Shown: positions 588 through 18,088 of the stretch, in pieces
Position numbering within the stretch: position 1 is the first letter of the stretch
Layout of the letters: each line of letters starts with the position of its first letter
Assembly: GCA_050261235.1 (NCBI GenBank)
Contig: JBLNDB010000092.1
Coordinates: 18,833-82,832, forward strand
Origin: Chloroflexota bacterium
GTDB taxonomy: Bacteria > Bacillota > Sulfobacillia > JBFLWA01 > JBLNDB01
Direction: 5' to 3'
DNA length: 64,000 nt
Translations under genes and position numbers: made by a program
The notes under the pieces: model-generated
Seen by the model: the letters and a program-made list of their open reading frames with translations, nothing else
What the model was told of the DNA's origin: nothing
The model's database searches: none

Positions 588-690
588 GCCCCTGGTCACC
601 TCCACTCGTCAACGCTGCTACAAGGCCTTTCACGATTATTCTATTCGTAGCGACCGGCGCCGGTCCCGATTGACAGAACGTGCCCAGGGC

Positions 691-716
691 AAAAAAAGAA
701 AGCCCGGGGTCGGGCC
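691..716 (-). terminator. Intrinsic terminator (minus-strand sense) downstream of CDS 735..1307
   Basis: Minus-strand read gcccg-ACCC-cgggc followed by tttcttttttt. Confidence 0.45.
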
Positions 717-734
717 ATCTTTGTCCGGGCGGTG

Positions 735-1307
735 TCATTGATCGTCGGTTGGCTCTTCGTCGATGTCTTCCTCGTCGAAGATATCGTCCTCAAGCGAGGC
801 GTCATCGTCTTCGTCGTCGAACTCCTTGACCTCGGGCGGCGGCCCGTAGACTTTGACCCAAAGGCGTGCTTCGCCGATGATCTCCACGCAGTACGCCGTT
901 GTGACAAGGATCTGAATGTCGCCGCCGGCGGTCACGAACGCGTCGCGGACGCGCGGTTCATGCAGGATCCGGGCCCGTGCCTCCTCGTTCTTGCCGAGGC
1001 GTCCGCCGTCCAATGCGACAACGGGAATGTTGGCCGTGTAGTGGACGGTCTTCTTGATCACGGCGGTCTGCCGTCCGGTGTCGAAGGAATACCAGGTGTG
1101 CAGATCCAACTGACCGCTGATCTGGACTTGCTGTTCCCCGGGCACGGCAGTAAAGCTATGATTGGTTACCAGGACGCCAAGGATGTTGTCGGGCGTGTGC
1201 TCCGGGATCAGCGTCTCACGGATCTCGACCTTCTCGCGGCCCTTTGCGCAGGTAGCCCGCGCAATGATCTCGCGCAGCTGGTCCTCGCCCTCAGAGGCAT
1301 CCCACAT
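735..1307 (-). CDS. Hypothetical protein with an extremely acidic C-terminal tail; possible SPOCS/DUF3794-like sporulation domain
   Basis: 190 aa with AAGGAGG 6 nt upstream of the ATG (minus strand). Non-junk composition with beta-rich repeats and a D/E tail. Own terminator downstream. The domain call is tentative. Confidence 0.5.
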   Translation of the reverse strand: MWDASEGEDQLREIIARATCAKGREKVEIRETLIPEHTPDNILGVLVTNHSFTAVPGEQQVQISGQLDLHTWYSFDTGRQTAVIKKTVHYTANIPVVALDGGRLGKNEEARARILHEPRVRDAFVTAGGDIQILVTTAYCVEIIGEARLWVKVYGPPPEVKEFDDEDDDASLEDDIFDEEDIDEEPTDDQ

Positions 1308-1492
1308 TGCTCTTCCTCCTTCTCACAGTTTTCGCTGGCCGCGCCCTTCCGCGCTTGGCAGACGGCCGGGGGGGCGGGCTGCATTATTCTATTGAACCGC
1401 CGCTTCGGTGGTGAATGCCCGCCGACGGTTCAGCTGAGTTTTGTGGTGTATCCTATGGAGCAGGAAGGTCCGTGGTTCCTCTCCGGCTTGGT

Positions 1493-1521
1493 TTACAACC
1501 CCGAGCGTGTTATGTGATAAT
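1493..1521 (+). promoter_or_regulatory. Putative sigma-A promoter (TTACAA-17-TGtGATAAT) for the SBP gene
   Basis: -35 and extended -10 hexamers with a 17-nt spacer, about 35 nt upstream of the start codon. Confidence 0.35.
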
Positions 1522-1557
1522 GAAGTGAAGAGTCACAGGAAAGGACGTCATCGCGCC

Positions 1558-3009
1558 ATGCGGGCCAGAAATCGAACAACTGTCGCACTCCCGCTGCTTG
1601 TCATTCTGGCTGGTCTAGCCATTGTCGGCTGCTTTGCGCCGCGACCCTCCGGCAACCTGAGGGTCGGCGTGCTGTCCCTGCCTGGCGCCGCTGACCCTGT
1701 GACAGCCACTGACCCGGGTTTGCTCGAACTGACCTTCGAGACCCTGATCGCGCGCGGTCCGGACGGCAACTACTACCCTGGCCTGGCTCGGGACTGGGCA
1801 GTCTCCGCTGACGGTCGCAGCGTGACGCTCAACCTCAAGACGGGAGTCGTGTTCAGCGATGGCACCGCACTGACGCCGCAAGTCGTTGCGGCTTCGCTGA
1901 ACCGACTGCACGCGGCAGACCCGGGCGTCCTCGGGCCGGTCGAGAGCATCGCGGCGGCAGGCGAGACTGCTGTCGTGGTTACTTTGTCGCGCCCGTATCC
2001 GCCTCTCTGGGGGGCGCTGGCATCGGTCCGCTCGGCAATCAGCGCCAACGCTGCCTCAGGCCTGGTCGGCACCGGCCCGTTCATCATCGAGAGCTTGACG
2101 GCCGACTCACTGGAGCTGGTTGCCAACTCCGCCTACCGTTGGGCGCCCGACTACTACCGCGTGCGCGGTCCGGCTCGGCTCGACCGCGTGTCGGTGATCC
2201 GGTTTGCCGACGCTGCTGCGCTCGCCGCTGCGGTGACCGGCGGCCAGGTCGATCTCGCCCGCGGGACCGACATGACCCCCGAGACTGGCTGGACGGCGAT
2301 CAGTGCGCCTGGCGAGTCGCTCCTCTATCTTGGCTTCAACACGCGCATTGCGCCGTACAACGATGCCCGCGTGCGTCGGGCGGTGGCCCTGCTCGCGGCG
2401 GCGGGAAGGTCGGCGGTGGCTGGCAACCTGCCAGGCTGGGTCGCCACAGATGCTTACCTGCCAGGTGGCGTTCCCGGCTCCGCTGAGCTGGCGCCGACCG
2501 GTGATCCGGCTTCGCTGCTGAACGAAGCCGGGTTCACCCGTGATGCCGCTGGCCGCTACCGGTCCGGCGAGACTGCGCTTCAACTTGTCCTCACTGTCGG
2601 TCCGCGGGCCGAGGATCAGGCGGTGGCAACCGCTATCGTCGACTCACTGAGGAGTGCCGGCATCGACGCCGCAGTCGGCGCCGCGCCGAACAGTGAACAG
2701 GCCTATCTGGCACGCTTCACCTGGGGCGAACCGGACATCCTCTACTACCTCCTTCACACTGGGGCTGAGGCTAACCGAAGTGGCTACAGCGATGCGAGAG
2801 CGGACCGGCTGCTCGAGGCAGCTGCAGGCGCGATGGACGAGACAGACCGGTTGGCAGTCTACCGCGCGTTGCAGGCGAAGCTGGCCGAGGATTGTCCGTG
2901 GCTACCCGTTCTCAGCAGCCAGGAACGGTGGATTGTCCGCGACGGCGTGAGGAACGTCCGCGCCGGGACGGGCGGCCGCCTGTTCCTGACGACGGCGGCG
3001 ATCAAGTAG
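1558..3009 (+). CDS. ABC transporter substrate-binding lipoprotein, family 5 (peptide/nickel type)
   Basis: Start trimmed from ORF-track 1441 to the ATG before MRARNRTTVALPLLVILAGLAIVGC (signal peptide plus lipobox IVGC). SBP_bac_5-like length and composition. No permease or ATPase genes adjacent. Confidence 0.7.
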   Translation: MRARNRTTVALPLLVILAGLAIVGCFAPRPSGNLRVGVLSLPGAADPVTATDPGLLELTFETLIARGPDGNYYPGLARDWAVSADGRSVTLNLKTGVVFSDGTALTPQVVAASLNRLHAADPGVLGPVESIAAAGETAVVVTLSRPYPPLWGALASVRSAISANAASGLVGTGPFIIESLTADSLELVANSAYRWAPDYYRVRGPARLDRVSVIRFADAAALAAAVTGGQVDLARGTDMTPETGWTAISAPGESLLYLGFNTRIAPYNDARVRRAVALLAAAGRSAVAGNLPGWVATDAYLPGGVPGSAELAPTGDPASLLNEAGFTRDAAGRYRSGETALQLVLTVGPRAEDQAVATAIVDSLRSAGIDAAVGAAPNSEQAYLARFTWGEPDILYYLLHTGAEANRSGYSDARADRLLEAAAGAMDETDRLAVYRALQAKLAEDCPWLPVLSSQERWIVRDGVRNVRAGTGGRLFLTTAAIK

Positions 3010-3087
3010 GCCCGAACTGGTGCGAAACATTCCCGCAATGCTGCCGTAGTAGCAGGCAAGAGCGCGGGTCAGGGAGGAGGCGGGCGG

Positions 3088-4932
3088 ATGGAAGGTGGAG
3101 CAACTCTGGAGGCAGTGCTGGCGGCTGACATCGGCAGTACGACCACCAAAGTGATCTTGATCGTGCGCGACCAAGGCCGCTACCGCCTCGCCGCGCGCTC
3201 GGAGTCACCGACGACGGTCGAGGCACCGACCGAGGACGTGCTGCTCGGAATGCTCGCGGCCATCCGCCAACTGGAGCAGATGAGCGGTCGCAGGCTCCTC
3301 TGCGGCAGCGAGCTGATCCGGCCGGCACGCGACGGGGCCGGCTGTGACGCCTTCGTCGCCACGTCGAGCGCCGGTGGCGGCCTGCAGATGCTGGTCAGCG
3401 GCGTCATCAAGGGTATGACCGCCGAGAGCGCAGAGCGCGCAGCCCTGGGCGCCGGCGCGATTGTCACCGACGTCGTTTCCATGGACGACGGTCGCAGTGT
3501 CATTGGCCGCATCACCCGCATCCGTGAGTTCCGCCCGGACATCATCCTGCTCTCTGGCGGCACCGATCAGGCGGATATCGCCCACGTCGCCTCCATGGCA
3601 GAGTGCATCGCGGCAGCCAACCCGAGTCCGCGGGTTGGGCGCGACTACCGCATCCCGGTGGTCTACGCCGGCAACCGCAACGCCCGCGAATATGTCACCG
3701 ACGTGCTGAGCGAGACAATGGACGTCCGCGTCGTCGATAACCTGCGCCCGTCGCTCGAGGTCGAGAACTTGCAGCCGGCGCGCGAGGAGATTCACCGGCT
3801 GTTCCTCGAGCACGTGATGGCGAGGGCGCCCGGTTACGCGCGCCTGCTTGATTGGAGCGGCAGGGTCATGATGCCGACGCCGATGGCGGTTGGCGACCTG
3901 ATCCGGCTGATCAGCGAGCGCTGGGGGAAGAGCGTCCTCGCCGTCGACATTGGCGGCGCCACGACCGATGTCTTCTCGGTCCTGAACGGCGCGTTCACTC
4001 GCAGCGTCAGTGCGAACATCGGCATGAGCTACTCGTTGTCGAACGTTCTCGCCGCGGCCGGCGTCGACCGGATCCGCCGCTGGTTGCCGTTTTCACTCAG
4101 TGAACGCGAGTTGCGCAACTGGGTTCTCAACAAGATGATCCGGCCGACAACGCTGCCCGAGGGGCTGGACGAGCTGGTCATCGAGCACGCGATGGCCCGC
4201 GAGGCGTTGCGGCTGTCCCAGCTCCATCACCAGCGACTGCTTGGCGGTCTTTCGGGCGTGCAACGTCGCCGCAATCTCGATGAGTTGTTCGAACAGAAGT
4301 CCGCCGACGACTTGCGCGCCGACGCGTCTCAGGCCGACGTCATTGTCGGCAGCGGCGGCGTCCTGTCGCACGCGCCGCGGCGGGCGCAGAGCATGCTCCT
4401 GATGCTCGACGGGCTGCTGCCGCGCGGCGTCTGTCACCTCTACGTCGACAACATCTTCATGCTTCCACACATCGGCGTGCTCGCAAGCGTCGCTCCCGAC
4501 GCCGCTCTGGAGGTGCTCGCGCACGACGGACTGGTCAGTCTCGGCACCTGCGTGGCGCCATTCGGCCACCGAGTCGACCGCGGCGAGCCCATTGCCCACG
4601 TCGTGGTGACGCGAGCCGGTGGGGAAGTCCTCCGGAGCGCGATTGTCGGTGCGGAACTGACGACCTTGCCACTGCCGGCGGGCGAGACGGCCGAGTTGAG
4701 TGTGACCCCGGTCGCCGGGTGGAATGTCGGCGCTGGCCGGGGTCGGTCGCGCCGCTGCACGGTAGTCGGCGGGGCATGCGGAATCGTCCTTGACGGGCGC
4801 GGACGGCCGATCGCACTGCCAGACGACCCCGCAGCCCGCCGCGACAGCGTCAGCCGCTGGGCAAGCGCGCTTGACGCCTACGATGACACACTCCTTGGCC
4901 GCTATCAGGCGGCCGCCGGGGAGGTCGACTGA
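3088..4932 (+). CDS. ASKHA-superfamily protein, glutamate-mutase GlmL/MutL-like (or hydantoinase-A-like)
   Basis: AGGGAGGAGG RBS 7 nt upstream. N-terminal DIGSTTTKVIL phosphate-1 motif and a later ILLSGGTDQAD motif typical of GlmL/MutL-like proteins. 614 aa. Confidence 0.55.
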   Translation: MEGGATLEAVLAADIGSTTTKVILIVRDQGRYRLAARSESPTTVEAPTEDVLLGMLAAIRQLEQMSGRRLLCGSELIRPARDGAGCDAFVATSSAGGGLQMLVSGVIKGMTAESAERAALGAGAIVTDVVSMDDGRSVIGRITRIREFRPDIILLSGGTDQADIAHVASMAECIAAANPSPRVGRDYRIPVVYAGNRNAREYVTDVLSETMDVRVVDNLRPSLEVENLQPAREEIHRLFLEHVMARAPGYARLLDWSGRVMMPTPMAVGDLIRLISERWGKSVLAVDIGGATTDVFSVLNGAFTRSVSANIGMSYSLSNVLAAAGVDRIRRWLPFSLSERELRNWVLNKMIRPTTLPEGLDELVIEHAMAREALRLSQLHHQRLLGGLSGVQRRRNLDELFEQKSADDLRADASQADVIVGSGGVLSHAPRRAQSMLLMLDGLLPRGVCHLYVDNIFMLPHIGVLASVAPDAALEVLAHDGLVSLGTCVAPFGHRVDRGEPIAHVVVTRAGGEVLRSAIVGAELTTLPLPAGETAELSVTPVAGWNVGAGRGRSRRCTVVGGACGIVLDGRGRPIALPDDPAARRDSVSRWASALDAYDDTLLGRYQAAAGEVD

Positions 4933-6287
4933 TGGCCAGCTATGCCAGCGGCGTCGTGCTCCAGACCACCCTGCGACGCGAGCGCAAGCTGCCGGTGTTC
5001 GGCCACGTCCTCGTCAACCGCGGCGACGTCGTCGACCCTGCCACGGTTGTCGCCGAGACCGACACCGTGCCCGGCGAACCTTACGTGATCGACATCTTCC
5101 AGGCGCTCGGGCAGCGTCTCAACCCCGAGGAGATGCGCCAGGCGCTGCGCAAGCGCGTGGGCGACCGGGTGACGGCCGGGGAGGTGCTGGCGCAGCACCG
5201 CTTCAGCCGGTTCAGCGAGCCCCGGACGGCGCGCTCGCCGGTCGACGGGACAATCGAGTTCATCTCGCGCGCCCACGGTCGCGTCATGGTGCGTGAGGAT
5301 CCGCAGTCGGTCAGGCCTCATCTGACCATCCACGTCGCCGACGACCTCGAGATTCCGGCCGGGATGGTGCGGCTGTTCATGCGCTTCCGCGAAGGCGACG
5401 AAGTGCACCAGGGAACCGCCCTGGCTGCCGTGCCGGATGCGCTGACAGGCATCAAGTACAGCTATGCTCCGGCTTCGGGGATCATCAGTGAGATCTGTAC
5501 CCGGACCGGGAACGTCGTCCTCATTCGCCCGTCGCGTCCCGCCACAGTCCGCGCCTATCTGCGGGGGCGTGTCGAGCGCGTCATCCCTGAGCTCGGGGCC
5601 GTGATCACGGGGCGTGCGTCGCTGATTCAGGGCGTGTTCGGTGTCGGCTACGAGGTCAGCGGTCGTCTGCGCGTGCTCGCTCAATCACCGGCTGATGAGG
5701 TTCAGCCGCAGATGATCGATGAAAACTGCCGCGGCCGGGTCATCGTCTCCGGGTCGTACGTCTCTTTGCCGACCATGCGGCGGGCACTTGACGTCGGTGC
5801 CTCCGGGATCATCACCGGCGGCATCGATCACCTCGACTTAGTCCGGCTGGTCGGCAGCGAGATCAGCGCCGGCATTACCGGTCAGGAGGACCTGGCGTTG
5901 ACGGTCGTAGTCACAGAAGGGTTCGGACGCCTGCCGATGGGCCAGCCTGCCTTCGATCTGCTGCGGCGGAACGATGGCCAGGAGGTGTCTCTGAACGGCT
6001 CGACCCAGGTGCGGGCTGGCGTCATCAGGCCGGAGGTCGTCATTCCACTGGCCGAAACCGCGACGCAGACAGAGGCAGCAGCGGCTGAACCGACGTTGTC
6101 GGAACTGGCCTGCGGCGTGCGGGTCCGGTTGCTCGGCAGGCCCCACTTTGGGCAGACTGGCGTCATCGTCGAGCGACCGACCGAACCGGTGAAGATGGAA
6201 AGCGAGATCAGCCTCAGGGTCGTCGTTGTCGAACTGACTGACGGACGCAGGGTCACCGTGCCGGAAGCCAACATCGACGTGATCTGA
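4932..6287 (+). CDS. Hypothetical protein with N-terminal biotinyl/lipoyl-like barrel-sandwich hybrid domain (RnfC/NqrA-N-like)
   Basis: ATGA stop/start overlap with the upstream gene gives translational coupling. VGDRVTAGEVLA...SPVDGTIEFI motifs. No Fe-S cysteine clusters. 451 aa. Confidence 0.5.
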   Translation: MASYASGVVLQTTLRRERKLPVFGHVLVNRGDVVDPATVVAETDTVPGEPYVIDIFQALGQRLNPEEMRQALRKRVGDRVTAGEVLAQHRFSRFSEPRTARSPVDGTIEFISRAHGRVMVREDPQSVRPHLTIHVADDLEIPAGMVRLFMRFREGDEVHQGTALAAVPDALTGIKYSYAPASGIISEICTRTGNVVLIRPSRPATVRAYLRGRVERVIPELGAVITGRASLIQGVFGVGYEVSGRLRVLAQSPADEVQPQMIDENCRGRVIVSGSYVSLPTMRRALDVGASGIITGGIDHLDLVRLVGSEISAGITGQEDLALTVVVTEGFGRLPMGQPAFDLLRRNDGQEVSLNGSTQVRAGVIRPEVVIPLAETATQTEAAAAEPTLSELACGVRVRLLGRPHFGQTGVIVERPTEPVKMESEISLRVVVVELTDGRRVTVPEANIDVI

Positions 6288-6458
6288 CACGCGTCTGCGG
6301 TTCGGGCATCACCAGCCGGCAGGCACGGCAAGTGGCAGGTAGCGCAATGCGCTGCCTGCCTAAGCGTATGCGCGCGGTCGCAGCACAGCCGACAGTGGGG
6401 GAGCAAAGAAGGATTCCGGCCGCCGACTGGCGAAACCTCCCAAAAACTGGGAGGAGGG

Positions 6459-7613
6459 ATGGCGCTGGACGAGACGGAACGCGCCTGCTGGATCGCTCTC
6501 GCCGCGACGGCGGAGGTTGGCGCTGGCAGGCATGGGGCCCTGCTCAGCCATTTCCGGTCGGCCCGTCGGGCATGGACGGCAACCGCCGGGGAATTGCTCG
6601 CCGTGCGCGGAGTCGGGCCGCGAACCATTGAAGCCATCACAGCGGCCCGCGGAGCTGAACCGCTGGTAGCCGCCAGGAGACTGGCGGCGGCGGCAGAGAA
6701 CGGCCCGTGGCGGGTATTGTGCCGGCCTCAGCAGGAATATCCCGGCCTGTTGCGAAAAGTGTACGACCCGCCTGCCGCCCTCTGGGTGCGCGGCAGGCTC
6801 CCGACCGGACCTGCGGTCGCGATTGTCGGAAGTCGCAGCGCGACACCCTACGGCCTTAAGGTGGCGCGTCGCCTCGCCGCCGATTTGGCCGCGAGTGGTG
6901 TGGCGATCGTTTCCGGGCTGGCGCGTGGCATCGACACAGCCGCCCACAAGGGGGCGCTGGATGGCGGCGGACTCACGGTAGCGGTGCTCGGCTGCGGTAT
7001 TGACCGCGTCTACCCGCCGGAGAACCGGTCGCTCGCCGCTGAGATCGCTGCCACGGGTGCGTTGATCAGCGAACTGCCTCCCGGGTTCAGACCTTTGCGC
7101 GGGCACTTTCCGGCCCGCAACCGGCTGATCAGCGGTCTGGCGGCGGTGACGGTGGTCGTCGAGGCCGGTGAGCGGAGCGGCGCCCTGATAACCGCCGATC
7201 TGGCTCTCGAGCAAGGTCGCGAAGTGATGGTCGTCCCCGGCGAAATCACCAGCCCGCTCAGCGCCGGCTGCAATCTGCTTCTTGCCGACGGGGTCCCGCC
7301 TGTTCTCTGCGCGGCGGACATCATCGACGCGCTCAGGAAGTCCTGGCTGCTGTCAGCTGACCAGCGCCAGTCCATCCGCGGACCGGTGGCATTGGGGGAG
7401 CCGTCCGGGAGCTGCCGGCAGGCGGGCGGCACGCGCGCCGACCGCATTCTCGCGTCGCTCTCAGCCAAGGGATCGGGCTTGGATGAGATAGTAGCTGCAA
7501 CCGGCCTGGCCGTCTCCGAGGTGCTGGCTGAGCTCACGGCGCTGCAGCTCAGTGGCCGCGTCGAGGGCCTTCCAGGCGGCAGGTTCGTATCCTTTTCCCA
7601 GCTGAGGAAATAA
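6459..7613 (+). CDS. dprA: DNA processing protein DprA (Smf)
   Basis: GGGAGGAGGG RBS. Rossmann-like DprA core (VVSGLARGIDTAAHKGAL, ARNRLISGL) and a C-terminal winged-helix region. Confidence 0.85.
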   Translation: MALDETERACWIALAATAEVGAGRHGALLSHFRSARRAWTATAGELLAVRGVGPRTIEAITAARGAEPLVAARRLAAAAENGPWRVLCRPQQEYPGLLRKVYDPPAALWVRGRLPTGPAVAIVGSRSATPYGLKVARRLAADLAASGVAIVSGLARGIDTAAHKGALDGGGLTVAVLGCGIDRVYPPENRSLAAEIAATGALISELPPGFRPLRGHFPARNRLISGLAAVTVVVEAGERSGALITADLALEQGREVMVVPGEITSPLSAGCNLLLADGVPPVLCAADIIDALRKSWLLSADQRQSIRGPVALGEPSGSCRQAGGTRADRILASLSAKGSGLDEIVAATGLAVSEVLAELTALQLSGRVEGLPGGRFVSFSQLRK

Positions 7614-7636
7614 TGCAGTCTTGAAGAAGGGTCGAT

Positions 7637-9787
7637 ATGACGACCCCGGGGACCGGAGGTGTCCAGTTGTCTAAGAACCTGGTAATAGTCGAGTCACCAG
7701 CCAAGGCCAAGACCATCGAGAAATTCCTCGGCAGGCGGTTCACTGTCAAGGCGTCGCTGGGCCATGTGCGCGACTTGCCGCGCAGCCAGTTCGGCGTCGA
7801 CGTCGACAACTCGTTCAGCCCGAAGTACATCACGATTCGCGGCAAGGGAGAGGTCCTCAAGGAATTGCGTGACGGTGCCAAGAAGGCGGACAAGGTCTTC
7901 CTCGCCACTGACCCGGATCGCGAGGGCGAGGCGATTGCCTGGCATCTTGCCCACCTGCTCGGCATCCCGGACCAAGAACGGAATCGGATCGAGTTCCACG
8001 AGATCACCAAGGAAGCGATCCAGAGCGCGATCAAGCGGCCCCGGGCTATCAACCTGTCGCTCGTCGACGCTCAGCAGGCAAGGCGAGTGCTCGACCGGCT
8101 GGTCGGCTACAAACTCAGTCCGCTGCTCTGGCGCAAGGTCCGCCGCGGGCTGTCTGCCGGCCGAGTCCAGTCGGCCGCTCTGAAGATGATCGTCGACCGT
8201 GAGCGTGAGATCGAGGCCTTCCGACCGGAGGAGTACTGGACCATCCACGCCCGACTCGAAACGCCGGACGGCAAGCCGCTCGAAGCGCGATTCCACGGCA
8301 TCGGCGAAGGCAAGACGGAGATTCCGTCACAGGCGGCAGTCGACGACATTCTCGTACGGATCGCCGGCAAGTCGTACATCGTCGCCGGCGTCAAGCGGCG
8401 TGAACGCCGGCGTCAGCCAGCAGCCCCGTTTACCACTTCCAGCCTGCAGCAGGAAGCATCGCGCAAACTCGGCTTCGGCGTGCGCAAAACGATGTCGCTG
8501 GCGCAGCAGCTATACGAGGGGTTGGAACTCGGCGCCGAGGGCAGCGTCGGCCTGGTCACTTACATCCGCACCGATTCGACGCGCATCGCCGCCTCGGCGG
8601 CAGCCGACGCGGCAGCCTACATAAAGGAACGCTACGGCAGCGACTATCTGCCGCCGGCGGCGCGGGCCGCCGATGTCCGGGAAGGGGCGCAGGACGCCCA
8701 TGAGGCGATCCGCCCGACCGCGGTGGGCCGGGAGCCGGAAGCCGTCAAACAGTATCTCAACTCCGAGCAGTATCGTCTCTACCGTCTGATCTGGGAGCGC
8801 TTCCTCGCGAGCCAGATGGCTGATGCCATCCTTGATACCGTGTCGCTTGACATCCACGCCGGCGATGCCACCTTCCGCGCCAGCGGGTCGACGATCCGCT
8901 TCGCGGGGTTCATGGCCGTCTACATCGAGAGTGAGGACGAGGGCAGGCGGGACAGGGAGCGTTACGACGACCAGGAGCAGGAGGGGTTGCTGCCTGAAGT
9001 CAACGAGGGCGATCAGCTGAGCCTGACCGACATTGTGCCGAAGCAGCACTTCACACAACCGCCTCCCCGCTACACGGAGGCTGCGCTGGTGCGGGCGCTC
9101 GAGGAGAACGGCATCGGCCGCCCCAGCACCTACGCGCCGATCGTAGAGACGATCCTTTACCGCAACTATGCTGAGCGCGAGGGTCGCGCCCTCAGGCCGA
9201 CGGAGCTCGGGACGCTGGTCGTCGATCTGCTGAGCGATTACTTCCCGCGCGTCGTCGACCCGGCGTTCACGGCTCGCCTGGAAGACGAGCTTGACGCCGT
9301 CGAGGCCGGCGACGCAGACTGGCACAGTGTCGTTGCCGGGTTCTACGGGCCGTTCGCCGAGGACGTCGCCCATGCCGAAGCGGAGATCGGTCAGGTCGAG
9401 GTGCCGGAGGAAGAGACCGACGTCACCTGCGACAAGTGCGGCCGGCGGATGGTCATCAAGTATGGTCGGTTCGGCAAGTTCCTTGCCTGCCCCGGGTTCC
9501 CCGAGTGCAGGAACACCAAGCCGTACTTCGAGCCCACGGGCGTCAAGTGCCCGAAGTGCGGCAGCGGTGATGTGGTCGAGCGCCGCACCAAGAAAGGTCG
9601 GCGCTTCTATGGCTGTTCGCGCTACCCGGATTGCGACTTTACCACTTGGCAGAAGCCCGTCAACCGCGAGTGCCCGAACTGCGGCGCGTTTCTTGTCGAG
9701 CGGCGCTCGAAGACGGAAGGCCTGTACTACGAGTGCGTCCGCGATGGGTGCGACTACCGCGAGTTCCCGACAGATGGTGAGGACTGA
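7637..9787 (+). CDS. topA: DNA topoisomerase I
   Basis: TOPRIM N-terminus ([18 protein letters not shown]), active-site region, and three C-terminal Cys4 zinc ribbons. 716 aa. Confidence 0.95.
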
Positions 9788-11139
9788 TGACAGTCACCAT
9801 CGTCGGCGCCGGACTGGCCGGCGCGGAGGCGGCGTGGCAGGTCGCCCGGCGGGGTGTGCCGGTCAGGCTCATCGAGATGCGCCCTCTCAAGACGACGCCG
9901 GCGCACCACACCGATCTGTTCGCTGAACTCGTCTGCAGCAATTCACTTCGCGCCGCTTCCCTCGACAACGCCGCCGGGTTGCTCAAGGAAGAACTCCGCC
10001 GGCTCGACTCGTTGATCATGCGGGTCGCAGACCGCACCCGGGTGCCGGCCGGGGGTGCTCAGGCGGTCGAGCGTGGCGCGTTCGCACGCGGTGTCACAGC
10101 CGAGCTCCGGAACCATCACCTGGTCAGCGTCGAGATCCGCGAAGTGGAGTCGCTGCCCACGTCCGGTCCGAGCATCATCGCCACCGGACCGCTGACATCG
10201 CCGTCTCTGGCGGCGGCAATCACCGACTTCACCGGTGAGCAGCATCTGAACTTCTTCGATGCCGCGGCTCCCATCGTCAGCGCGGACAGCATCGATCGGG
10301 GAGTTGTTTTCGCCGCCAGCCGTTATGGCAAGGGCGAGGCCGTCTATCTCAACTGCCCGATGACCAAAGACGAGTATGAGACCTTCCTCGCCGCGCTCAT
10401 CACCGCCGAGCGGGCCCTGCCGCACGACTTCGAGGCAGGGCCGCGCGAGCGCTACTTCGAAGGGTGCATGCCGATCGAAGCGATGGCCCGTCGCGGCCCC
10501 GACACGCTTCGCTTCGGCCCGCTGCGCCCGGTCGGGCTGACCGACCCGCGAACGGGGAAGCGACCGTATGCTGTGGTCCAACTGCGGCCCGAGAATCGCG
10601 AGCAGACGCTGTACAACCTCGTCGGTTTCCAGACCAGCCTCAAGTGGGGCGAACAGCGACGCGTCTTCCGCCTCATCCCCGGACTCGCCGGCGCCGAGTT
10701 CGAGCGGTACGGGGTCATGCACCGGAACACATACATCAACTCGCCGCGCATCCTGCTTCCGACCATGCAGACGCGCGCCAGGCCCGACCTGTTGTTCGCC
10801 GGGCAGCTGACCGGGGTTGAAGGGTACGTCGAGTCGACGGCTTCCGGTCTGGTCGCCGGCATCAATGCGGCGCGCCTGGAGCGTGGTGAGGGCCCGCTCA
10901 CGCCGCCGCGCGAGTCGGCCATCGGCGCGCTGTGCCACTACATCTGCGAGGCCGAGCCCGACTCCTTCCAGCCGATGAACGTCGCCTTCGGGCTGTTCCC
11001 GCCACTGCCGGAGCGCATCCGCAACAGGAACGAGAAAAAGCGGGCGCTGGCCGAGCGAGCGCTGGCGGCACTCGACGCCTACAGGCGCGAGGCGGAGCCT
11101 GCAGCCGCGGGGCCCAGGGAATTGTCTACTGACGTATGA
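9787..11139 (+). CDS. trmFO: Methylenetetrahydrofolate--tRNA-(uracil54-C5)-methyltransferase TrmFO (Gid)
   Basis: N-terminal FAD-binding [10 protein letters not shown] motif. Length and B. subtilis synteny (topA-gid-codV). Confidence 0.9.
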
Positions 11140-11157
11140 CAATTTTGAATTCACGCC

Positions 11158-11186
11158 TTGTCACGGCAACTCTGGCCATGTAGAAT
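11158..11186 (+). promoter_or_regulatory. Putative sigma-A promoter TTGTCA-17-TAGAAT upstream of xerC-hslVU-codY
   Basis: Near-consensus hexamers with a 17-nt spacer. Confidence 0.4.
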
Positions 11187-11190
11187 GAGT

Positions 11191-11222
11191 GGGGAGGGGC
11201 TCACCTCCCCGATTTCGTTTTT
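11191..11222 (+). terminator. Hairpin GGGGAGG-GGCTCA-CCTCCCC plus U-rich tail; either trmFO terminator or a leader attenuator for xerC
   Basis: 7-bp GC stem followed by GATTTCGTTTTT. It lies between the candidate promoter and the xerC start. Confidence 0.4.
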
Positions 11223-11236
11223 GCGGGGGTGCGGGC

Positions 11237-12133
11237 ATGGATGCGCTGATCGATGACTTCCTCCTCGCTCTCCGGACAGAGAAAGCGGCATCGCCGCATA
11301 CGATCGAGAGCTACAGCCTGGATCTCCGCCAGTTCCGCGAGTTCCTGGCCGGTCGCGGGGCCGCCGACCGGGCGGCAGTGCTGTCAGTCACCAACATCGT
11401 CATCCGCGAGTACCTCGCCAACATGCGCGCCGGCGGACACAGCAAGCGGACGATGGCCCGCAAACTGTCGGCCCTGCGCTCGTTCTACCGCTACCTGGTG
11501 GTGATCGGGCTGCTCGCGGACAATCCGGCCAAGGCCGTCGCCTCGCCAAAGCTTGAACGCAGACTGCCGCGCTTTCTCGACCAACCGGTGGTCGAGCGGC
11601 TGCTTGACCAGCCGGACACGTCAACACCGGCTGGCCTGCGCGACCGGGCGATTCTCGAAGTGCTGTACGGGTGCGGGCTGCGCGTGTCTGAAGCAGTCGG
11701 TCTTGACCTGTCCAGCGTCGACTACTCACTCGGCTATGTCAGAGCGTTCGGAAAGGGCCGAAAGGAGCGTCTGGTGCCGATCGGCAGCGATGCGCTCGCG
11801 GCGCTCGCGCGCTATCTCGACGGCGGCCGGCCCCATTTCGACCCCAAGGAGGGAGAGCGGGCGCTGTTCCTTAACCGCAGCGGCACCCGCCTCAGCGCCC
11901 GTGGTGTGATGCGCCTGCTCGACAAGTACGCTGCCCGCCTGGCACTGGCAGTCGACGTCTCACCGCACGTTCTCAGGCACACGTTCGCCACCCATCTGCT
12001 CGAAAACGGCGCCGACCTGCGTTCGGTGCAGGAGATGCTCGGCCACGAGAGCCTGTCGACGACCCAGATCTACACCCATGTCACGCGTACCAGGATGATG
12101 GACGTCTACAAGAAGGCCCATCCGCGAGCATAG
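11237..12133 (+). CDS. xerC: Tyrosine recombinase XerC (CodV)
   Basis: Start trimmed to [12 protein letters not shown] (ORF track 11189 would translate through the hairpin). C-terminal R..HxxR..Y catalytic motifs ([38 protein letters not shown]). Confidence 0.85.
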
Positions 12134-12143
12134 GAGGGACCCG

Positions 12144-12671
12144 ATGTTTCACGCCACCACCATCGTTGGCGTCGTTCGCGACGGCAAGGTCGCGCTGGCG
12201 GGCGACGGCCAGGTCACGACCGGTAACACGGTCATGAAGGCCGATGCGCGCAAAGTACGGCGCCTGTTCGGCGACAAGGTCCTGGCCGGCTTTGCCGGCT
12301 CGGTCGCCGATGCCTTCACTCTGTTCGAGAAGTTCGAGGCCAAGCTGGAGGAGTATCATGGCAACCTGGGGCGGGCAGCGGTCGAACTGGCCAAGGACTG
12401 GCGATCCGACCGGGTCCTGCGGCGTCTTGAGGCGATGCTGCTGGTGGCCGACCGCGAACGGATGTTGGTCATCTCGGGCAATGGTGATCTGATCGAGCCC
12501 GAGGACGGCGTCACGGCGATCGGCTCGGGTGGCCCGTACGCTCTCGCGGCTGCGCGGGCGCTGCTCAGCGAAACCACCCTGCCGGCTGCCGCCATCGCCA
12601 GACGGGCATTGGAGATCGCGGCTGACATCTGTATCTACACCAATCGCCAGATTACTGTCGAGGAGCTCTAG
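12144..12671 (+). CDS. hslV: ATP-dependent protease subunit HslV (ClpQ/CodW)
   Basis: [10 protein letters not shown]... is closely alignable to B. subtilis CodW ([23 protein letters not shown]). Confidence 0.95.
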
Positions 12672-12682
12672 GAGGCGGTGTC

Positions 12683-14092
<1,410 letters not shown>

Positions 14093-14134
14093 TACCGCGG
14101 CGCGAGAAACAGCAAGGGACAGGGGGATGAGGGC

Positions 14135-14911
14135 ATGAAGACACTGCTCGAGAAAACGAGAAGAATCAACAAACTGCTCCAGAAGTCCGGGCATGCCGTC
14201 GACTTCACCGAGATGGCCTCAGTGCTGAGCGAACTGATTTCGGCCAACATCTATGTCGTGGGCAAGCGTGGCAAAGTGCTTGGCTATGCGCTCCAGGGCG
14301 AGTTCGAGTGCGAGATCATGCGCGATGAGGTGCTGCGCAACGAGCGCTTCCCCGCGGATTACGCCGACAGCCTGCTGCGCGTCAACGAGACGACACCGAA
14401 CACCTGCCAGGAGAACCAGATGTGCGCCTTCAAACGGGGCGAGAAGTGTCTCTTCCAGGATAAGCTGACAACGCTTGTGCCGGTCAATGGCGGCGGCGAG
14501 CGGCTGGGGACGCTGATTCTGGCCCGCTTCCGGCAGCCATTCACGGACGAGGACCTGATCCTCGCCGAGTATGGTGCGACGGTAGTCGGCATGGAGATCC
14601 TGCATTCGAAGGCTGACAAGATCGAGGAGGATGCGCGCAAGAAGGCGGCCGTCCAGGTTGCTCTCGGCACGCTCTCCTACTCGGAGCTTGAGGCCGTCCA
14701 GCACATCTTCGACGAGCTGGAGGGGAGCGAAGGTCTGCTCGTCGCGTCCAAGATCGCCGACCGGGTCGGTATCACGCGCTCAGTCATCGTCAATGCGCTG
14801 CGCAAGTTCGAGAGCGCCGGCGTCATCGAATCGCGCTCGCTTGGCATGAAGGGTACTCACATCAAGGTGCTGAACGACCGGCTGGTCGAGGAGCTGCGCA
14901 AGCTCCGCTGA
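14135..14911 (+). CDS. codY: GTP-sensing pleiotropic transcriptional repressor CodY
   Basis: Near-colinear with B. subtilis CodY, including the C-terminal [24 protein letters not shown]. Confidence 0.95.
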
Positions 14912-14929
14912 TAGACGAAGATCATCATC

Positions 14930-14962
14930 GACGGCGGCGCGCTGCACCGCCGTCTTTGTGTT
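14930..14962 (+). terminator. Intrinsic terminator after codY
   Basis: GACGGCGG-loop-CCGCCGTC followed by TTTGTGTT. Confidence 0.55.
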
Positions 14963-15034
14963 GCGTCCCTTGCCAGTCATATCCACTCCGGCAGCGGCAA
15001 TAATAGGTTAACCGAGACATGCCGGAAGGGACGG

Positions 15035-15565
15035 ATGACTTTGGCGGACTCCGGGCTCAGGCGCCAGTTTCTCAGTGGCCTGATCGTCGGTGTGATCCTG
15101 ACGCTCTCACTGCTTGCCGGCGGTGCCACGGTCATCACGCGCCGCGGCGTCAGCGTCAGCGTCGACATCGAGCCGGTTGCGCTGATGGTCCGCGAGCAAG
15201 TGACGGCCGAGGCGCAGCGCAGCCTGCCGCAGTTCGTGTCCGAGATGGAGGCTCGCGTGCCGGAGATGGTCGCAACGGAAATGGCGCAGCGCATGCGGGC
15301 AGCCGCCAGCTTCAGCATGGCCGATTTTACGTTCGACCTGCCGGACAGCGTGACGGCGATGATTCAGGAGCGGCTGCAGGCCATCGTCGAAGACATCATC
15401 TATGAGTGCTTTGCCATGTTCGATACCGACTTGGCGGCTGCGCAACTCGGGGATCAGGCGTATGAGCTGGTGAAGACATCGATCGCCAGCGAAGCCTCCG
15501 AGCTGGCCCTGCAATATAGGCTGTTCGGCCGGCTGCCCCTGCCGGTGACGCTGAACTTCCGTTGA
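15035..15565 (+). CDS. Hypothetical membrane-anchored protein
   Basis: N-terminal TM (LSGLIVGVILTLSLLAGGA), protein-like composition, and GGAAGGG upstream. No recognisable homolog. Confidence 0.4.
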   Translation: MTLADSGLRRQFLSGLIVGVILTLSLLAGGATVITRRGVSVSVDIEPVALMVREQVTAEAQRSLPQFVSEMEARVPEMVATEMAQRMRAAASFSMADFTFDLPDSVTAMIQERLQAIVEDIIYECFAMFDTDLAAAQLGDQAYELVKTSIASEASELALQYRLFGRLPLPVTLNFR

Positions 15566-15584
15566 CCGCGCGCTGGTCGGCTTG

Positions 15585-15613
15585 TTGCTAAGGCGCACCA
15601 GTTGTGGTATACT
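15585..15613 (+). promoter_or_regulatory. Putative sigma-A promoter TTGCTA-17-TGgTATACT for rpsB-tsf
   Basis: Hexamers with an extended -10 TG, about 125 nt upstream of rpsB. Confidence 0.4.
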
Positions 15614-15736
15614 ATGCGACGGTGTCCACTACACACGCTGTTCGATCCGCTGGCTGGTGCCAGGCAGATGCCGGGCTTCCGGCGGAGATGAGAGCAGCGG
15701 CGGACCGAAAACCACAGGAGGGGGTGAACCAGAACA

Positions 15737-16516
15737 ATGGCTGTCATTTCCATGAAGCAGCTCCTCGAAGCCGGCGTTCACTTTGGTCATCAGACTCGGC
15801 GTTGGAACCCGAAGATGGCTCAGTACATCTTCACCGAACGGAACGGAATCTACATCATCGACCTGCAGAAGACCGTCCGCAAGGTCGATGAGGCGTACGA
15901 GGCCGTCCGCCGGATCGCCGGCGAGGGTGGCAACATCCTGTTCGTCGGCACCAAGAAGCAGGCGCAGGAGGCCGTCCAGGAAGAAGCCCTGCGTTGCGGC
16001 ATGTACTACGTCAACCAGCGTTGGCTCGGCGGCATGCTGACCAACTTCTCGACCATCAAGCGCCGCATTCAGCGCCTGCAGGAACTCGTCCGCATTGAAG
16101 AAGAGGGCGACAACGGGAAGCTGACCAAGAAGGAACTCGCCAGCCTCGCGCACGAGCGCGAACGCCTCGAGAAGTTCCTCGGCGGCATCAAGGACATGAA
16201 GGACCTGCCGACCGCGCTGTTCATCGTCGATCCGCGCAAGGAGCGGATTGCAGTCGCTGAGGCGCGCAAGCTGAACATCCCGATTGTCGCCATCGTCGAT
16301 ACGAACTGCGACCCGGATGAGATCGACTACGTCATCCCGGGCAACGACGACGCAATCCGGGCCGTCCGCCTGCTTACCGCCAAAATGGCCGACGCGGTCA
16401 TCGAAGGCCGGCAGATGTCGAAGGACGTTCAGCCTGAGACTGTTCCCACCGAGGCAGTGACTGCTGAGGTCGCGGACGTGGATGAGGCTGACGCGAACGA
16501 ACAACCGGCTCGCTAG
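15737..16516 (+). CDS. rpsB: 30S ribosomal protein S2
   Basis: [27 protein letters not shown] is a canonical S2 N-terminus. Confidence 0.95.
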
Positions 16517-16522
16517 CAAGCT

Positions 16523-16567
16523 GGGGTAAGGGTGGCGCGAGCATACCCTTACCCTGTCTTTGTCTCT
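16523..16567 (+). promoter_or_regulatory. rpsB-tsf intergenic stem-loop (attenuator/partial terminator)
   Basis: GGGGTAAGGGT-11 nt loop-ACCCTTACCC followed by TGTCTTTGTCTCT. Confidence 0.4.
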
Positions 16568-16627
16568 GGGTGCAGGCCGGAGCGGCCTTCATCGGGTGCT
16601 GTTTATCTCAAAAGGGGGCTTCATCAC

Positions 16628-17245: not shown

Positions 17246-17281
17246 CCCGGATTCGGGGATCTCGGACGATGATCCCGGGAG

Positions 17282-17310
17282 CCCGCCGGCATATCGCCGG
17301 CGGGTTGTGG
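17282..17310 (+). terminator. Hairpin after tsf (CCCGCCGGC-ATATC-GCCGGCGGG) with a weak U tail
   Basis: 9-bp GC stem followed by TTGTGG. Confidence 0.35.
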
Positions 17311-17358
17311 CAAAGAGGAGTTGTTCGGCTGGGCGCAGAAACAGGGTGAGGGGGGCTC

Positions 17359-18087: not shown

Positions 18088-18088
18088 A

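Follow-up and report, generated by a model that had tools for sequence, protein, structure and literature searches.

Gene organization of the locus

The window, that is, the whole 64-kb stretch of DNA analyzed here, carries consecutive plus-strand genes for an SBP lipoprotein, a MutL-family ASKHA ATPase and a partner protein, with a minus-strand CotE gene upstream and dprA-topA downstream. The sizes and positions of the three open reading frames (ORFs) agree with those of an initial annotation. The locus is laid out as follows.

1492–1521, plus strand: promoter-like site TTTACA-18-GATAAT with extended TG, 5' of the SBP gene (consensus match only)
1558–3009, plus strand: SBP ORF, 483 aa
1615–1632, plus strand: SBP lipobox LAIVG|C, aa 20–25
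1948–1979, plus strand: stem-loop within the SBP coding sequence
3088–4932, plus strand: MutL-family ASKHA ATPase ORF (long form), 614 aa
4930–4934, plus strand: TGATG stop/start overlap, with the MutL TGA at 4930–4932 and the partner ATG at 4932–4934, one base being common to both
8 nt upstream of the partner ATG, plus strand: GGGGAGG Shine-Dalgarno sequence
4932–6287, plus strand: partner ORF, long form with duplicated barrel-sandwich region, 451 aa

The MutL/partner junction reads CGAC-TGATG-GCC, and the junctions in relatives are TGATG or ATGA. Because of the one-base overlap, the Shine-Dalgarno sequence and these related junctions, translational coupling of the two genes is likely, as the initial annotation proposed, although the overlap is TGATG and not the ATGA given there. 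The promoter-like site is the only one on the plus strand in the intergenic region 5' of the SBP gene and, judged from its consensus match, could drive SBP, MutL and partner as one transcript. Neither the SBP/MutL junction, the MutL–partner pair nor the stretch from the pair to dprA contains a terminator-like site, and the SBP is possibly co-transcribed with the pair. None of the three proteins matched the PADLOC anti-phage defense models.

A long-form MutL-family ATPase

The 614-aa protein contains the following elements.

3127–3150, plus strand: ASKHA phosphate-1 motif DIGSTTTK, aa 14–21
3340–3732, plus strand: inserted flavodoxin-like α/β domain, ~aa 85–215 (boundaries approximate)
3364–3390, plus strand: glycine-rich loop SSAGGGLQM of the flavodoxin-like insert
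3532–3567, plus strand: glycine-rich loop RPDIILLSGGTD of the flavodoxin-like insert
aa 157–160: GGTD motif
3946–3969, plus strand: ASKHA phosphate-2 motif DIGGATTD, aa 287–294
4348–4377, plus strand: ASKHA adenosine motif GSGGVLSHAP, aa 421–430
4531–4929, plus strand: C-terminal extension past the 450-position MutL Pfam model, the Pfam match stopping at residue 479

Assignment to the MutL/GlmL-family ASKHA proteins was borne out by an HMM check, in which Pfam MutL (PF13941, gathering score 27 bits) gave a full-length match of residues 10–479 to profile positions 1–448 of 450 at 401.2 bits (E = 7.5e-120). The phosphate-1, phosphate-2 and adenosine motifs, together with an actin-like fold, place the protein among the ASKHA proteins. 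All of these motifs are intact and invariant: G16, S17, T18, T19 and K21 of phosphate-1 show no variation in 41 homologues, and the MutL alignment has 130 invariant columns. The glycine-rich loops of the flavodoxin-like insert are likewise invariant. By its motifs, the 614-aa protein belongs to the MutL-family ASKHA ATPases as a catalytically intact long form.

The C-terminal extension comprises a β-rich domain (~aa 482–570) and two helices (aa 581–609) in the AF2 secondary structure, and is kept in all ~600-aa relatives, whose tblastn alignments reach residue 598–610. The initial annotation quoted the DIGSTTTK and GGTD motifs correctly but overlooked this domain and the flavodoxin-like insert. 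Foldseek returned N-methylhydantoinase and acetone/acetophenone carboxylase as best matches, and Hydantoinase_A gave a weak Pfam match around the phosphate-2 motif. A Kyte-Doolittle scan, whose scope does not extend to amphipathic helices, predicted no transmembrane (TM) segment in MutL or the partner, and neither protein has a signal peptide.

Among NCBIfam models, GlmL and the ornithine-degradation protein Or-4 come closest. The protein scored 217.5 bits against GlmL (NF040745, curated cut-off 475), 208.7 against Or-4 (NF040744, cut-off 600) and 153.4 against the TIGR01319 subfamily (cut-off 204.05), and thus fell below all three cut-offs. No mutase or B12-binding family was present in the Pfam tables of eight loci (L001–L003 and L086–L090), the direct flanks in the window likewise lack a mutase, no mutase-like gene recurred among 83 clustered loci, and no cobalamin riboswitch was found. 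Given the failed cut-offs, the missing mutase linkage and the missing riboswitch, the protein is not GlmL and is very unlikely to be a B12-mutase reactivase, a resemblance that the initial annotation had put forward while correctly finding no mutase next to the module.

A partner protein with a swiveling domain

The AF2 model of the partner (pLDDT 86.8) shows a predicted fold of barrel-sandwich hybrid (BSH) lobes, a swiveling β/β/α domain and a KOW/SH3 barrel, arranged as follows.

4953–5600, plus strand: two barrel-sandwich hybrid lobes, ~aa 8–223 (boundaries approximate)
5157–5192, plus strand: hairpin VGDRVTAGEVLA, aa 76–87
aa 102–110: SPVDGTIEF motif
5469–5495, plus strand: hairpin PASGIISEI
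5601–6047, plus strand: swiveling β/β/α domain, ~aa 224–372 (boundaries approximate), which holds the family's invariant motifs
5628–5654, plus strand: invariant motif QGVFGVGYE
5796–5822, plus strand: invariant motif GASGIITGG
5874–5891, plus strand: invariant motif ITGQED
5913–5927, plus strand: invariant motif TEGFG
5994–6035, plus strand: invariant motif NGSTQVRAGVIRPE
6114–6284, plus strand: C-terminal KOW/SH3-like β-barrel, aa 395–451

The second lobe is a ~78-aa insertion confined to long Bacillota forms. Neither Pfam nor NCBIfam offers a model for the partner family itself, and sources name its members 'hypothetical protein' throughout, save one JGI entry labelled NusG. NQRA_N matched at 26.0 bits, barely above the Pfam cut-off of 25, and DUF2118 at 25.6 bits (cut-off 20.5). 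Only ~90–110 partner residues align with the NqrA/RnfC N-terminal domain (PF05896, PF13375); unlike NqrA and RnfC, the partner lacks a Rossmann-like domain, SLBB and Fe-S, and no Nqr/Rnf genes lie nearby. With 19.9 bits against the whole-protein nqrA model TIGR01936 (cut-off 321), the partner falls outside NqrA/RnfC. The initial annotation was therefore right about the NqrA/RnfC-like barrel-sandwich N-terminus, including the VGDRVTAGEVLA and SPVDGTIEF sequences that it quoted, but missed the swiveling and KOW domains.

No Lys, His or Cys is invariant or nearly invariant in an alignment of 45 partners, and the protein is therefore not a covalent cofactor carrier. A biotinyl/lipoyl carrier was rejected, as a conserved modifiable hairpin-tip Lys (e.g., of an MKM motif) is absent and Biotin_lipoyl (PF00364) scored 16.5 bits, below its cut-off of 22.1. 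We also rejected a phospho-carrier of the PEP-utilizing-enzyme type: the swiveling fold is present, but the conserved phospho-accepting His is absent and no PEP-utilizers Pfam match was obtained.

The pair is ancient and widespread

We define the pair family as a ~600-aa MutL with the C-terminal domain, whose gene immediately precedes and is coupled to that of a partner with QGxFGxGxE, TEGFG and NGxTQxRAGxIRPE motifs; the window genes at 3088–6287 fit this definition. The partner was found in at least 596 species genomes of bacteria and archaea, and its family comprises 3,709 clusters at 50% identity (E up to 1e-3). The initial annotation had made co-occurrence in other genomes the test of its pairing. 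Indeed, of the 86 partner genes with enough flank, 76 are immediately preceded by a long MutL gene on the same strand, and the neighbor-joining trees of MutL and partner are congruent, with identical paralogue clades. Partner genes without a nearby MutL gene occur in Armatimonadota and WOR-3. MutL and partner are 50–60% identical across phyla and also occur in archaea, a degree of conservation that corresponds to a housekeeping level of constraint. These data show that MutL and the partner are the cognate subunits of a cytoplasmic module that is ancient and broadly distributed across bacteria and archaea, and that Bacillota have up to three paralogous pairs.

Two end-to-end MutL–partner fusions (P0285, 995 aa; P0377, 1003 aa) also point to a cognate pair, though they may be artefacts of read-through from one adjoining gene into the next.

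The window copy is inherited in place

In the five closest relatives (L086–L090; 47–53% partner identity), the pair occupies the matching position in a comM ... dprA-topA-xerC-hslV arrangement. GC content is uniform and no flanking repeats were found. The initial annotation's view of a module inserted before dprA-topA is rejected on these three grounds; the pair was inherited between comM and dprA-topA in the window and these relatives, and the window copy is a member of a Bacillota paralogue clade detached from the membrane-gene cluster described below.

The SBP matches Pfam SBP_bac_5 (E = 4e-45), scores far under every NCBIfam equivalog cut-off, and has no ABC permease or ATPase adjoining the module, as the initial annotation had noted for this lipoprotein. 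The three-gene module proposed there holds only within the lineage: L088 and L089 have an SBP_bac_5 gene immediately 5' of the pair and L086 has one three genes upstream of it, but L087 and L090 have none near the pair, and the window SBP gave one weak match (L069) among L001–L085. All four SBPs (window, L086, L088 and L089) are membrane-anchored and lack ABC partners. Identity to relatives is 29–32% for the SBP, compared with 56–57% for MutL and 55–65% for TopA in the same genomes, which fits relaxed or non-orthologous neighbors inside a syntenic housekeeping block. By these comparisons, the SBP is probably a neighbor by lineage-specific synteny and not a functional part of the pair.

Linkage to a DUF6754 membrane-gene cluster

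In other genomes, and for most lineages outside the window's clade, the pair is tied by context to a conserved, undescribed cluster of membrane-protein genes, with the canonical order c8, c3, MutL, partner, c4 (DUF6754), c5, c6, c7. The products of c4–c7 are four membrane proteins, as well conserved as the pair, of which only c4 matches a DUF-numbered family (DUF6754, E = 8e-120); c8 has one TM segment and is PH-like, and c3, of ~130 aa, lies directly 5' of MutL in the canonical clade. None of these recurrent membrane-protein neighbors belongs to a recognizable transporter family. ORF clustering of 83 loci placed c3 in 45 of 79 loci, at least one of c4–c7 in 27 and c8 in 21, in fixed orders (for example, L040 7023–14568). 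Tandem c4–c7 sets occur in L041 (three) and L077 (two), each locus with a single ATPase pair, and L031 strings together a window-clade pair, c8-c4-c7, an A pair, c3 and a B pair.

In about two thirds of sampled loci, among them those of Cloacimonadota and the L001 genome, the fetched DNA (at most 10 kb to either side) contained no c4–c7 gene. Because of these loci and the Armatimonadota and WOR-3 exceptions, the linkage is frequent, not obligatory. Stand-alone pairs adjoin IMPDH, HisRS, ABC/FtsX or ArsR genes, and no metabolic gene recurs across the sampled neighborhoods. Searches by tblastn and profile HMM found none of c3–c8 in the window's 64 kb, which places the locus outside the DUF6754-associated cluster as defined, and no ACM3XN-tagged protein (this MAG) was among the best 120 DUF6754 matches. 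A close relative, GCA_030691505.1, carries on three contigs a dprA-linked pair (L086), c8-MutL_A-partner_A-c3-MutL_B (L009) and a lone c4–c7 operon (L091). The initial annotation held function not to be deducible from context; this needs qualifying, in that context elsewhere links the pair to the DUF6754 cluster. Its description of the pair as uncharacterized stands, and no paper in the searched literature mentions PF13941 or DUF6754.

Proposed function and alternatives

Our best explanation, to which we give about an even chance, is a cognate ATPase–partner module that serves a DUF6754 membrane complex in an ATP-driven manner. Gene structure and fold analogy suggest that MutL and the partner would form a heterodimer. 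ATP binding and hydrolysis in the ASKHA cleft could then drive a rigid-body movement of the partner's swiveling domain, by analogy with other enzymes that have such a domain and with diol-dehydratase reactivase. This movement would remodel or energize a client, which in canonical loci would be the DUF6754/c5/c6/c7 membrane complex; the window's paralogue would most likely act in trans on this complex, with the complex's genes at another place in the genome, or on a client that has diverged. More tentatively, the pair may be the soluble motor of an undescribed, ancient bacterial and archaeal membrane machine for transport or membrane/envelope remodeling. An ASKHA ATPase, not an ABC, AAA+ or P-type one, would then energize DUF6754-c5-c6-c7 through a BSH-swivel-KOW adaptor, the motor would have been triplicated in Bacillota with the window holding a detached third copy, and the tandem membrane sets with one motor in L041 and L077 would resemble the shared energizing modules of ECF transporters.

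A soluble two-subunit ATP-dependent enzyme, which we regard as rather unlikely, would have its ASKHA subunit phosphorylate or activate a small molecule, like hydantoinase A, N-methylhydantoinase and acetone carboxylase β (PF01968), which are ASKHA enzymes that depend on ATP and act together with another subunit. The partner's swiveling domain would provide residues for catalysis or metal binding, in the manner of RraA-like aldolases/decarboxylases or aconitase X, or shuttle an intermediate, and the membrane genes would be a linked uptake or efflux system rather than the client. These enzymes are the nearest solved structures (Foldseek, E ~1e-10), and the weak Hydantoinase_A match points the same way. 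The invariant E241, E319, E329, R361, R366 and T358 of the partner look active-site-like, the invariant loops of the flavodoxin-like insert hint at binding of a nucleotide or cofactor, conservation is very high (the invariant MutL columns and 51–60% identity across phyla), and window-clade relatives adjoin etfBA, acyl-CoA dehydrogenase or 3HCDH/ECH genes. However, TM-scores to these enzymes are at most 0.33, the partner is unrelated to HyuB-type subunits, and no HyuB-like subunit or linked substrate-pathway gene is present. The partner also lacks conserved residues for a covalent shuttle, and both the assorted genes beside stand-alone pairs and the recurrent membrane proteins speak against such an enzyme. 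It is improbable, too, that the pair is an FtsA/PilM-like membrane-tethered scaffold, in which ATP would mainly control oligomerization, and docking on short cytoplasmic peptides of membrane proteins would organize a membrane assembly without mechanical or chemical work. The position of c3 directly upstream of MutL and the TM segment and PH-like domain of c8 would suit a PilN role for either, but the catalytic motifs are fully conserved, unlike those of many scaffold ASKHA proteins, and the window's clade keeps all invariant residues while lacking c3 and c8. Neither protein has a predicted TM segment, only ~250–260 of the 614 residues align with FtsA/PilM (11–16% identity), and the flavodoxin-like insert, the C-terminal β-domain and the BSH-swivel-KOW partner are all missing from FtsA/PilM.

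Public annotation implies that the protein reactivates or chaperones, in the manner of GlmL, a coenzyme-B12-dependent mutase whose gene lies elsewhere; we consider this very unlikely. Homologues are entered in the sources under 'glutamate mutase L' or as a 'putative reactivating factor for D-ornithine aminomutase', and JGI uses 'TIGR01319 family'. The protein indeed shares with GlmL and Or-4 the Pfam family, the ASKHA core, the conserved ATP motifs and the flavodoxin-like insert, which lies inside the family model, and the combination of ASKHA and swiveling domain mirrors the α subunit of diol-dehydratase reactivase (DdrAB, PDB 2d0o). Against this, its GlmL and Or-4 scores are less than half of the equivalog cut-offs, ~135 C-terminal residues extend beyond the 450–460-position models, and the partner lies outside the MutL, GlmL and Or-4 models. 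The examined loci have no B12 enzyme gene nearby and are often linked to membrane genes instead. In DdrA the swiveling domain is inserted in the ASKHA chain, whereas here it belongs to a second polypeptide, together with BSH and KOW domains; there is no DdrB-like subunit and no sequence similarity past the fold, and the client proposed here is not a B12 enzyme. The glmS-glmL-glmE and ora operons are not known to include a BSH-swivel-KOW partner. Least probable of all is a functional trio, in which a peptide or metal outside the cell would be sensed or bound by the lipoprotein and the two cytoplasmic proteins would process the signal or cargo. The upstream SBP genes here and in relatives, the sole promoter-like site preceding the SBP gene with no terminator-like site before MutL, and the anchored SBPs without ABC partners would agree with it. 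Yet the SBP is extracytoplasmic and no membrane protein connecting it to the pair is encoded, and its patchy occurrence and low identity also speak against a trio.

In thousands of genomes the ATPase is entered as 'glutamate mutase L' or 'methylaspartate mutase', with the partner as 'hypothetical protein'; on present evidence, the GlmL name is wrong for the ~600-aa form. The annotation of the window is corrected from an inserted module to a vertically inherited paralogue. The system as defined is a testable target with a cultured host, Symbiobacterium thermophilum, and the pair may be a new coupling of actin-fold ATP hydrolysis to a membrane complex.

Gene layout of the module

The window carries a long-form MutL-family ATPase of the actin-fold (ASKHA) class together with a dedicated partner protein that previously had no model, encoded downstream of a family-5 solute-binding lipoprotein (SBP).

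Features of the window
735-1307, minus strand: CotE (PF10628, E 6e-35), flanking the module
1492-1521: promoter-like site upstream of the SBP ORF
1558-3009, same strand as the next two ORFs: SBP_bac_5 ORF, 483 aa
3088-4932, same strand: MutL ORF, 614 aa
3340-3732: flavodoxin-like insert of MutL, aa 85-215, with invariant loops SSAGGGLQM and RPDxILLSGGxDGG
4932-6287, same strand: partner ORF, 451 aa
6459-7613: dprA, flanking the module on the other side
7637-9787: topA, followed by a GIDA/TrmFO-type gene and xerC
14135-14911, plus strand: CodY
27118-31461, plus strand: PolC-type DNA polymerase III

The three same-strand ORFs and every peptide motif quoted in the initial annotation are present. 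MutL and partner do overlap, but by one base in TGATG, not in the ATGA claimed; that account was a real observation, slightly mis-described, and its interpretation was right in part. Strong Shine-Dalgarno sequences precede both genes, and terminator-like sites were absent from the SBP–MutL junction, the inside of the pair and the interval between the pair and dprA. An Rfam scan for riboswitch or leader elements gave only sub-threshold noise, and a PADLOC scan for defence systems gave no matches; both readings were rejected on these grounds. The NCBI label 'Chloroflexota bacterium' of the source MAG (tags ACM3XN_...) appears wrong, because CotE (outer spore coat), CodY, the PolC-type polymerase and the order dprA-topA-trmFO-xerC-hslVU-codY are Bacillota hallmarks.

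A long-form MutL-family ATPase

The 614-aa protein matches the Pfam MutL family (PF13941) end to end (401 bits, residues 10-479), and its nucleotide/catalytic ASKHA motifs are intact. It failed the curated models for glutamate mutase component L (GlmL; 217 bits versus a cut-off of 475), Or-4 (209 versus 600) and TIGR01319 (153 versus 204). Full-length relatives of ~600 aa are 51-60% identical across Bacillota, Nitrospirota, anammox Planctomycetota, Gemmatimonadota, Nitrospinota and Deltaproteobacteria, and databases name them 'glutamate mutase L', 'methylaspartate mutase' or 'TIGR01319 family'. 'Glutamate mutase L' is a mis-annotation of the long-form ATPase. An alignment of 41 homologues has 130 invariant columns, the three ASKHA nucleotide motifs among them.

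In the AlphaFold2 model (pLDDT 85.9, pTM 0.85), the core has the actin fold and is interrupted at about aa 85-215 by a flavodoxin-like α/β domain whose glycine-rich loops are invariant; a β-rich C-terminal domain with two helices (aa 482-609) lies beyond the 450-position Pfam match ending at residue 479. The two insert loops resemble a phosphate/nucleotide site separate from the ASKHA ATP site, and the insert might bind a cofactor, for instance flavin or a nucleotide. Foldseek placed hydantoinase-A-type enzymes at the top for this model, with TM-scores of at most 0.33. A PDB sequence search found no solved structure for either protein of the pair, and an exact-sequence look-up had no record of the window MutL or of P0178, from the MAG's second pair. 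A Kyte-Doolittle scan predicted no TM segments in MutL or partner. The glutamate-mutase family is listed among actin-fold enzymes, with nothing further (PMC5597319); a literature search on PF13941, DUF6754 and GlmL-type ASKHA proteins found nothing relevant.

A dedicated partner protein

The N-terminus of the 451-aa partner gave marginal Pfam matches to NQRA_N (26.0 bits, cut-off 25) and DUF2118 (25.6 bits, cut-off 20.5) and a sub-threshold one to Biotin_lipoyl. Its swivelling β/β/α domain matches RraA (9.2), rifampin phosphotransferase/PEP synthase (9.2), Enzyme I (9.1), the pyruvate kinase C-domain (9.0), the aconitase X small subunit (8.4) and diol-dehydratase reactivase α (7.3). Invariant residues are concentrated in QGxFGxGxE, ITGxED, TEGFG and NGxTQxRAGxIRPE. 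No Lys, His or Cys is among them in the partner alignment, evidence against a carrier of biotinyl, lipoyl, phospho-His or persulfide groups; biotin/lipoyl and phospho-His roles were rejected.

The partner has at least 516 close homologues, all called 'hypothetical protein' where named except one JGI entry (NusG), and occurs in at least 596 species-representative genomes. At 50% identity, homologues form 3,709 (E<=1e-3), 2,522 (E<=1e-10) or 1,208 (E<=1e-30) clusters. A ~374-aa class is found in most phyla and archaea, and a ~450-aa class in Bacillota, with a ~78-aa insertion duplicating the barrel-sandwich lobe.

MutL and partner are a coupled, co-evolving ASKHA ATPase and barrel-sandwich hybrid-swivel-KOW protein. 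Among 85 homologous loci fetched for comparison (loci bear L numbers hereafter), 86 partner genes came with 2.1 kb or more of upstream DNA, and in 76 of these cases the gene immediately before the partner, in the same orientation, encodes a long MutL. Neighbour-joining trees of both proteins recovered the same clades, including paralogue clades inside single genomes. Two representatives are MutL–partner fusions from end to end, P0285 with 995 aa and P0377 with 1003 aa; in P0285, residues 8-600 match the window ATPase at 47% identity and residues 633-993 match the partner. These may be genuine Rosetta-stone fusions or read-through artefacts of abutting genes, and because read-through could mimic fusion, we count them as support, not proof. 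Partner genes lacking an adjoining upstream MutL came chiefly from Armatimonadota and WOR-3, where either the pair is unlinked or the partner acts without the ATPase. The fetched DNA held a lone partner and no MutL in L029, L053, L061 and L075 (Armatimonadota) and in L025, L055, L072 and L085 (WOR-3; upstream sequence near nil in L072).

A wider DUF6754 gene cluster

Clustering of all ORFs in the fetched loci showed that the pair is usually part of a larger conserved cluster of about eight genes spanning many bacterial phyla and archaeal MAGs. The canonical order, c8-c3-MutL-partner-c4-c5-c6-c7, occurs in L040 (7023-14568), L077, L024 and L032; the cluster, in other arrangements or in part, is also represented by L020:4426-15229, L091:8001-10965, L066 and L039.

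Genes of the cluster
c8: ~150-200 aa, one TM segment, weak bacterial-PH hint (bPH_6, E 0.019)
c3: ~130 aa
MutL: ~600 aa
partner: ~374 aa
c4: DUF6754 (E 8e-120), 270-430 aa
c5: ~215 aa, polytopic
c6: ~280 aa, TM segments at both ends
c7: ~215 aa, polytopic
c16: L002:7151-7969, L044:6008-6754 and eight further FCB-group/Acidobacteriota loci; tolQ-tolR-tolA-tolB-pal adjoins the pair

Only MutL and DUF6754 match Pfam or NCBIfam families; c3, c5, c6, c7, c8 and c16 match none. The membrane proteins (c4-c7) contain near-invariant motifs, and the more than 7,600 DUF6754 homologues are all unnamed. Neither PF13941 nor DUF6754 was mentioned in the searchable literature. In archaeal-MAG loci (Bathyarchaeota L066, Thermoproteota L039), the same genes run divergently or convergently; L068 lies on a 679-kb Methanomethylicia scaffold, and its neighbours fit an archaeon but are not diagnostic. 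FCB-group and Acidobacteriota loci carry c16, secreted or anchored, between MutL and partner, with tol-pal adjoining. The c16 protein (~255 aa) starts with a signal or TM segment and has a further TM segment at its C-terminus. In Cloacimonadota and the 3.9-Mb genome L001, c3-MutL-partner follows purS-purQ with no membrane genes nearby. Tandem c4-c7 sets accompany a single ATPase pair in L041 (three, 638-13700) and L077 (two, 7323-18441), a hint that several membrane modules share one ATPase module for energising or remodelling.

Place of the window's copy

In Bacillota such as Symbiobacterium thermophilum (L020), one operon carries two paralogous pairs: c8-c4-c5-c6-c7-MutL_A-partner_A(long)-c3-MutL_B-partner_B(short). 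The window pair falls in a third clade in neighbour-joining trees, with L086, L087, L004, the first pair of L031, L017, L006 and L007. Its closest relatives are 47-53% (partner), 56-57% (MutL) and 55-65% (TopA) identical and share the order comM ... (SBP_bac_5 or etfB-etfA)-MutL-partner-(ABC exporter pair or rpmB)-dprA-topA-(trmFO)-xerC-hslV-hslU-codY. The pair is kept at the same position in these relatives and was thus inherited there. The earlier view that the module had been inserted before dprA-topA is not supported, given this shared position, flat GC content (about 0.65-0.70) and the absence of flanking repeats around the module; mobile insertion was rejected.

Searches with tblastn and profile HMMs found none of c3-c8 in the 64-kb window or near the closest relatives' pairs, and no ACM3XN-tagged protein is among the best 120 of more than 7,600 DUF6754 matches. 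In GCA_030691505.1, the system is spread over three contigs, with the dprA-linked pair on one (L086), c8-MutL_A-partner_A-c3-MutL_B on another (L009) and a lone c4-c5-c6-c7 operon on the third (L091). In L031, c8-c4-c7 and the A and B pairs follow immediately after a window-clade pair, an arrangement that ties the window's clade to the same system.

The window's MAG has a second same-clade pair (P0178/P0043, tag ACM3XN_05430); Germane, 3HCDH and ECH genes come after it. In some relatives (L086:5020-8053, L087:6079-7888, L090:5095-6895, L004:2331-4004), the pair directly follows etfB-etfA, in some cases together with an acyl-CoA dehydrogenase gene, or precedes 3-hydroxyacyl-CoA dehydrogenase (3HCDH) and enoyl-CoA hydratase (ECH) genes. 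Such genes are missing at the matching window position, and the neighbours of other stand-alone pairs are unrelated. ETF/β-oxidation genes, present near some relatives only, were rejected as general partners, and so was a metabolic theme around stand-alone pairs, whose neighbours are heterogeneous.

Several stand-alone Bacillota pairs have a small ORF (92-156 aa) directly 3' of the partner (L006:11393-11671, L007:11388-11666, L017:11451-11807, L019:11309-11779, L023:11303-11719); a 171-nt gap alone follows the partner in the window. The small ORF had no Pfam match in the four scanned (L006, L017, L019), and the c3 profile was unmatched in all five.

Proposed mechanism and alternatives

The ATPase motifs are intact, and in many lineages the pair is linked to four conserved membrane proteins and two small proteins. 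We propose that MutL and partner would form a heterodimer whose ATP cycle shifts the partner's swivelling domain, with the DUF6754/c5/c6/c7 membrane complex as client; the pair may serve several membrane sets as a shared energising or remodelling module, as in L041 and L077. We regard this proposal as a whole as evenly balanced between right and wrong. Diol-dehydratase reactivase α has the same ASKHA and swivel arrangement, but in a single chain, and the MutL and partner models both match 2d0o_A. The pair might instead be a soluble hydantoinase-like two-subunit enzyme, as the Foldseek ranking, invariant residues resembling an active site and loops that look cofactor-binding would suggest; we consider this unlikely, though a serious candidate. 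An FtsA/PilM-like scaffold is improbable, and a true B12-mutase reactivase somewhat more so.

Least probable of all is an SBP–MutL–partner functional trio. The first ORF does encode a family-5 solute-binding protein (E 4e-45, lipobox LAIVG|C), and the immediate upstream neighbour of the pair is an SBP_bac_5 gene in the window, L088 and L089; L086 has one three genes upstream, and L087 and L090 have none. The window SBP found one weak match (L069) among L001-L085, and identity among the SBPs of the window and its relatives is only 29-32%. These SBPs are all membrane-anchored and extracellular, the pair is cytoplasmic, and no bridging membrane protein is encoded. We read the association as conserved synteny, perhaps co-transcription, rather than as a functional trio.

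The functions proposed here for the pair and the cluster are predictions. The pair is of interest because it points to a gene cluster, so far undescribed, that is pan-bacterial and archaeal and includes conserved membrane proteins.
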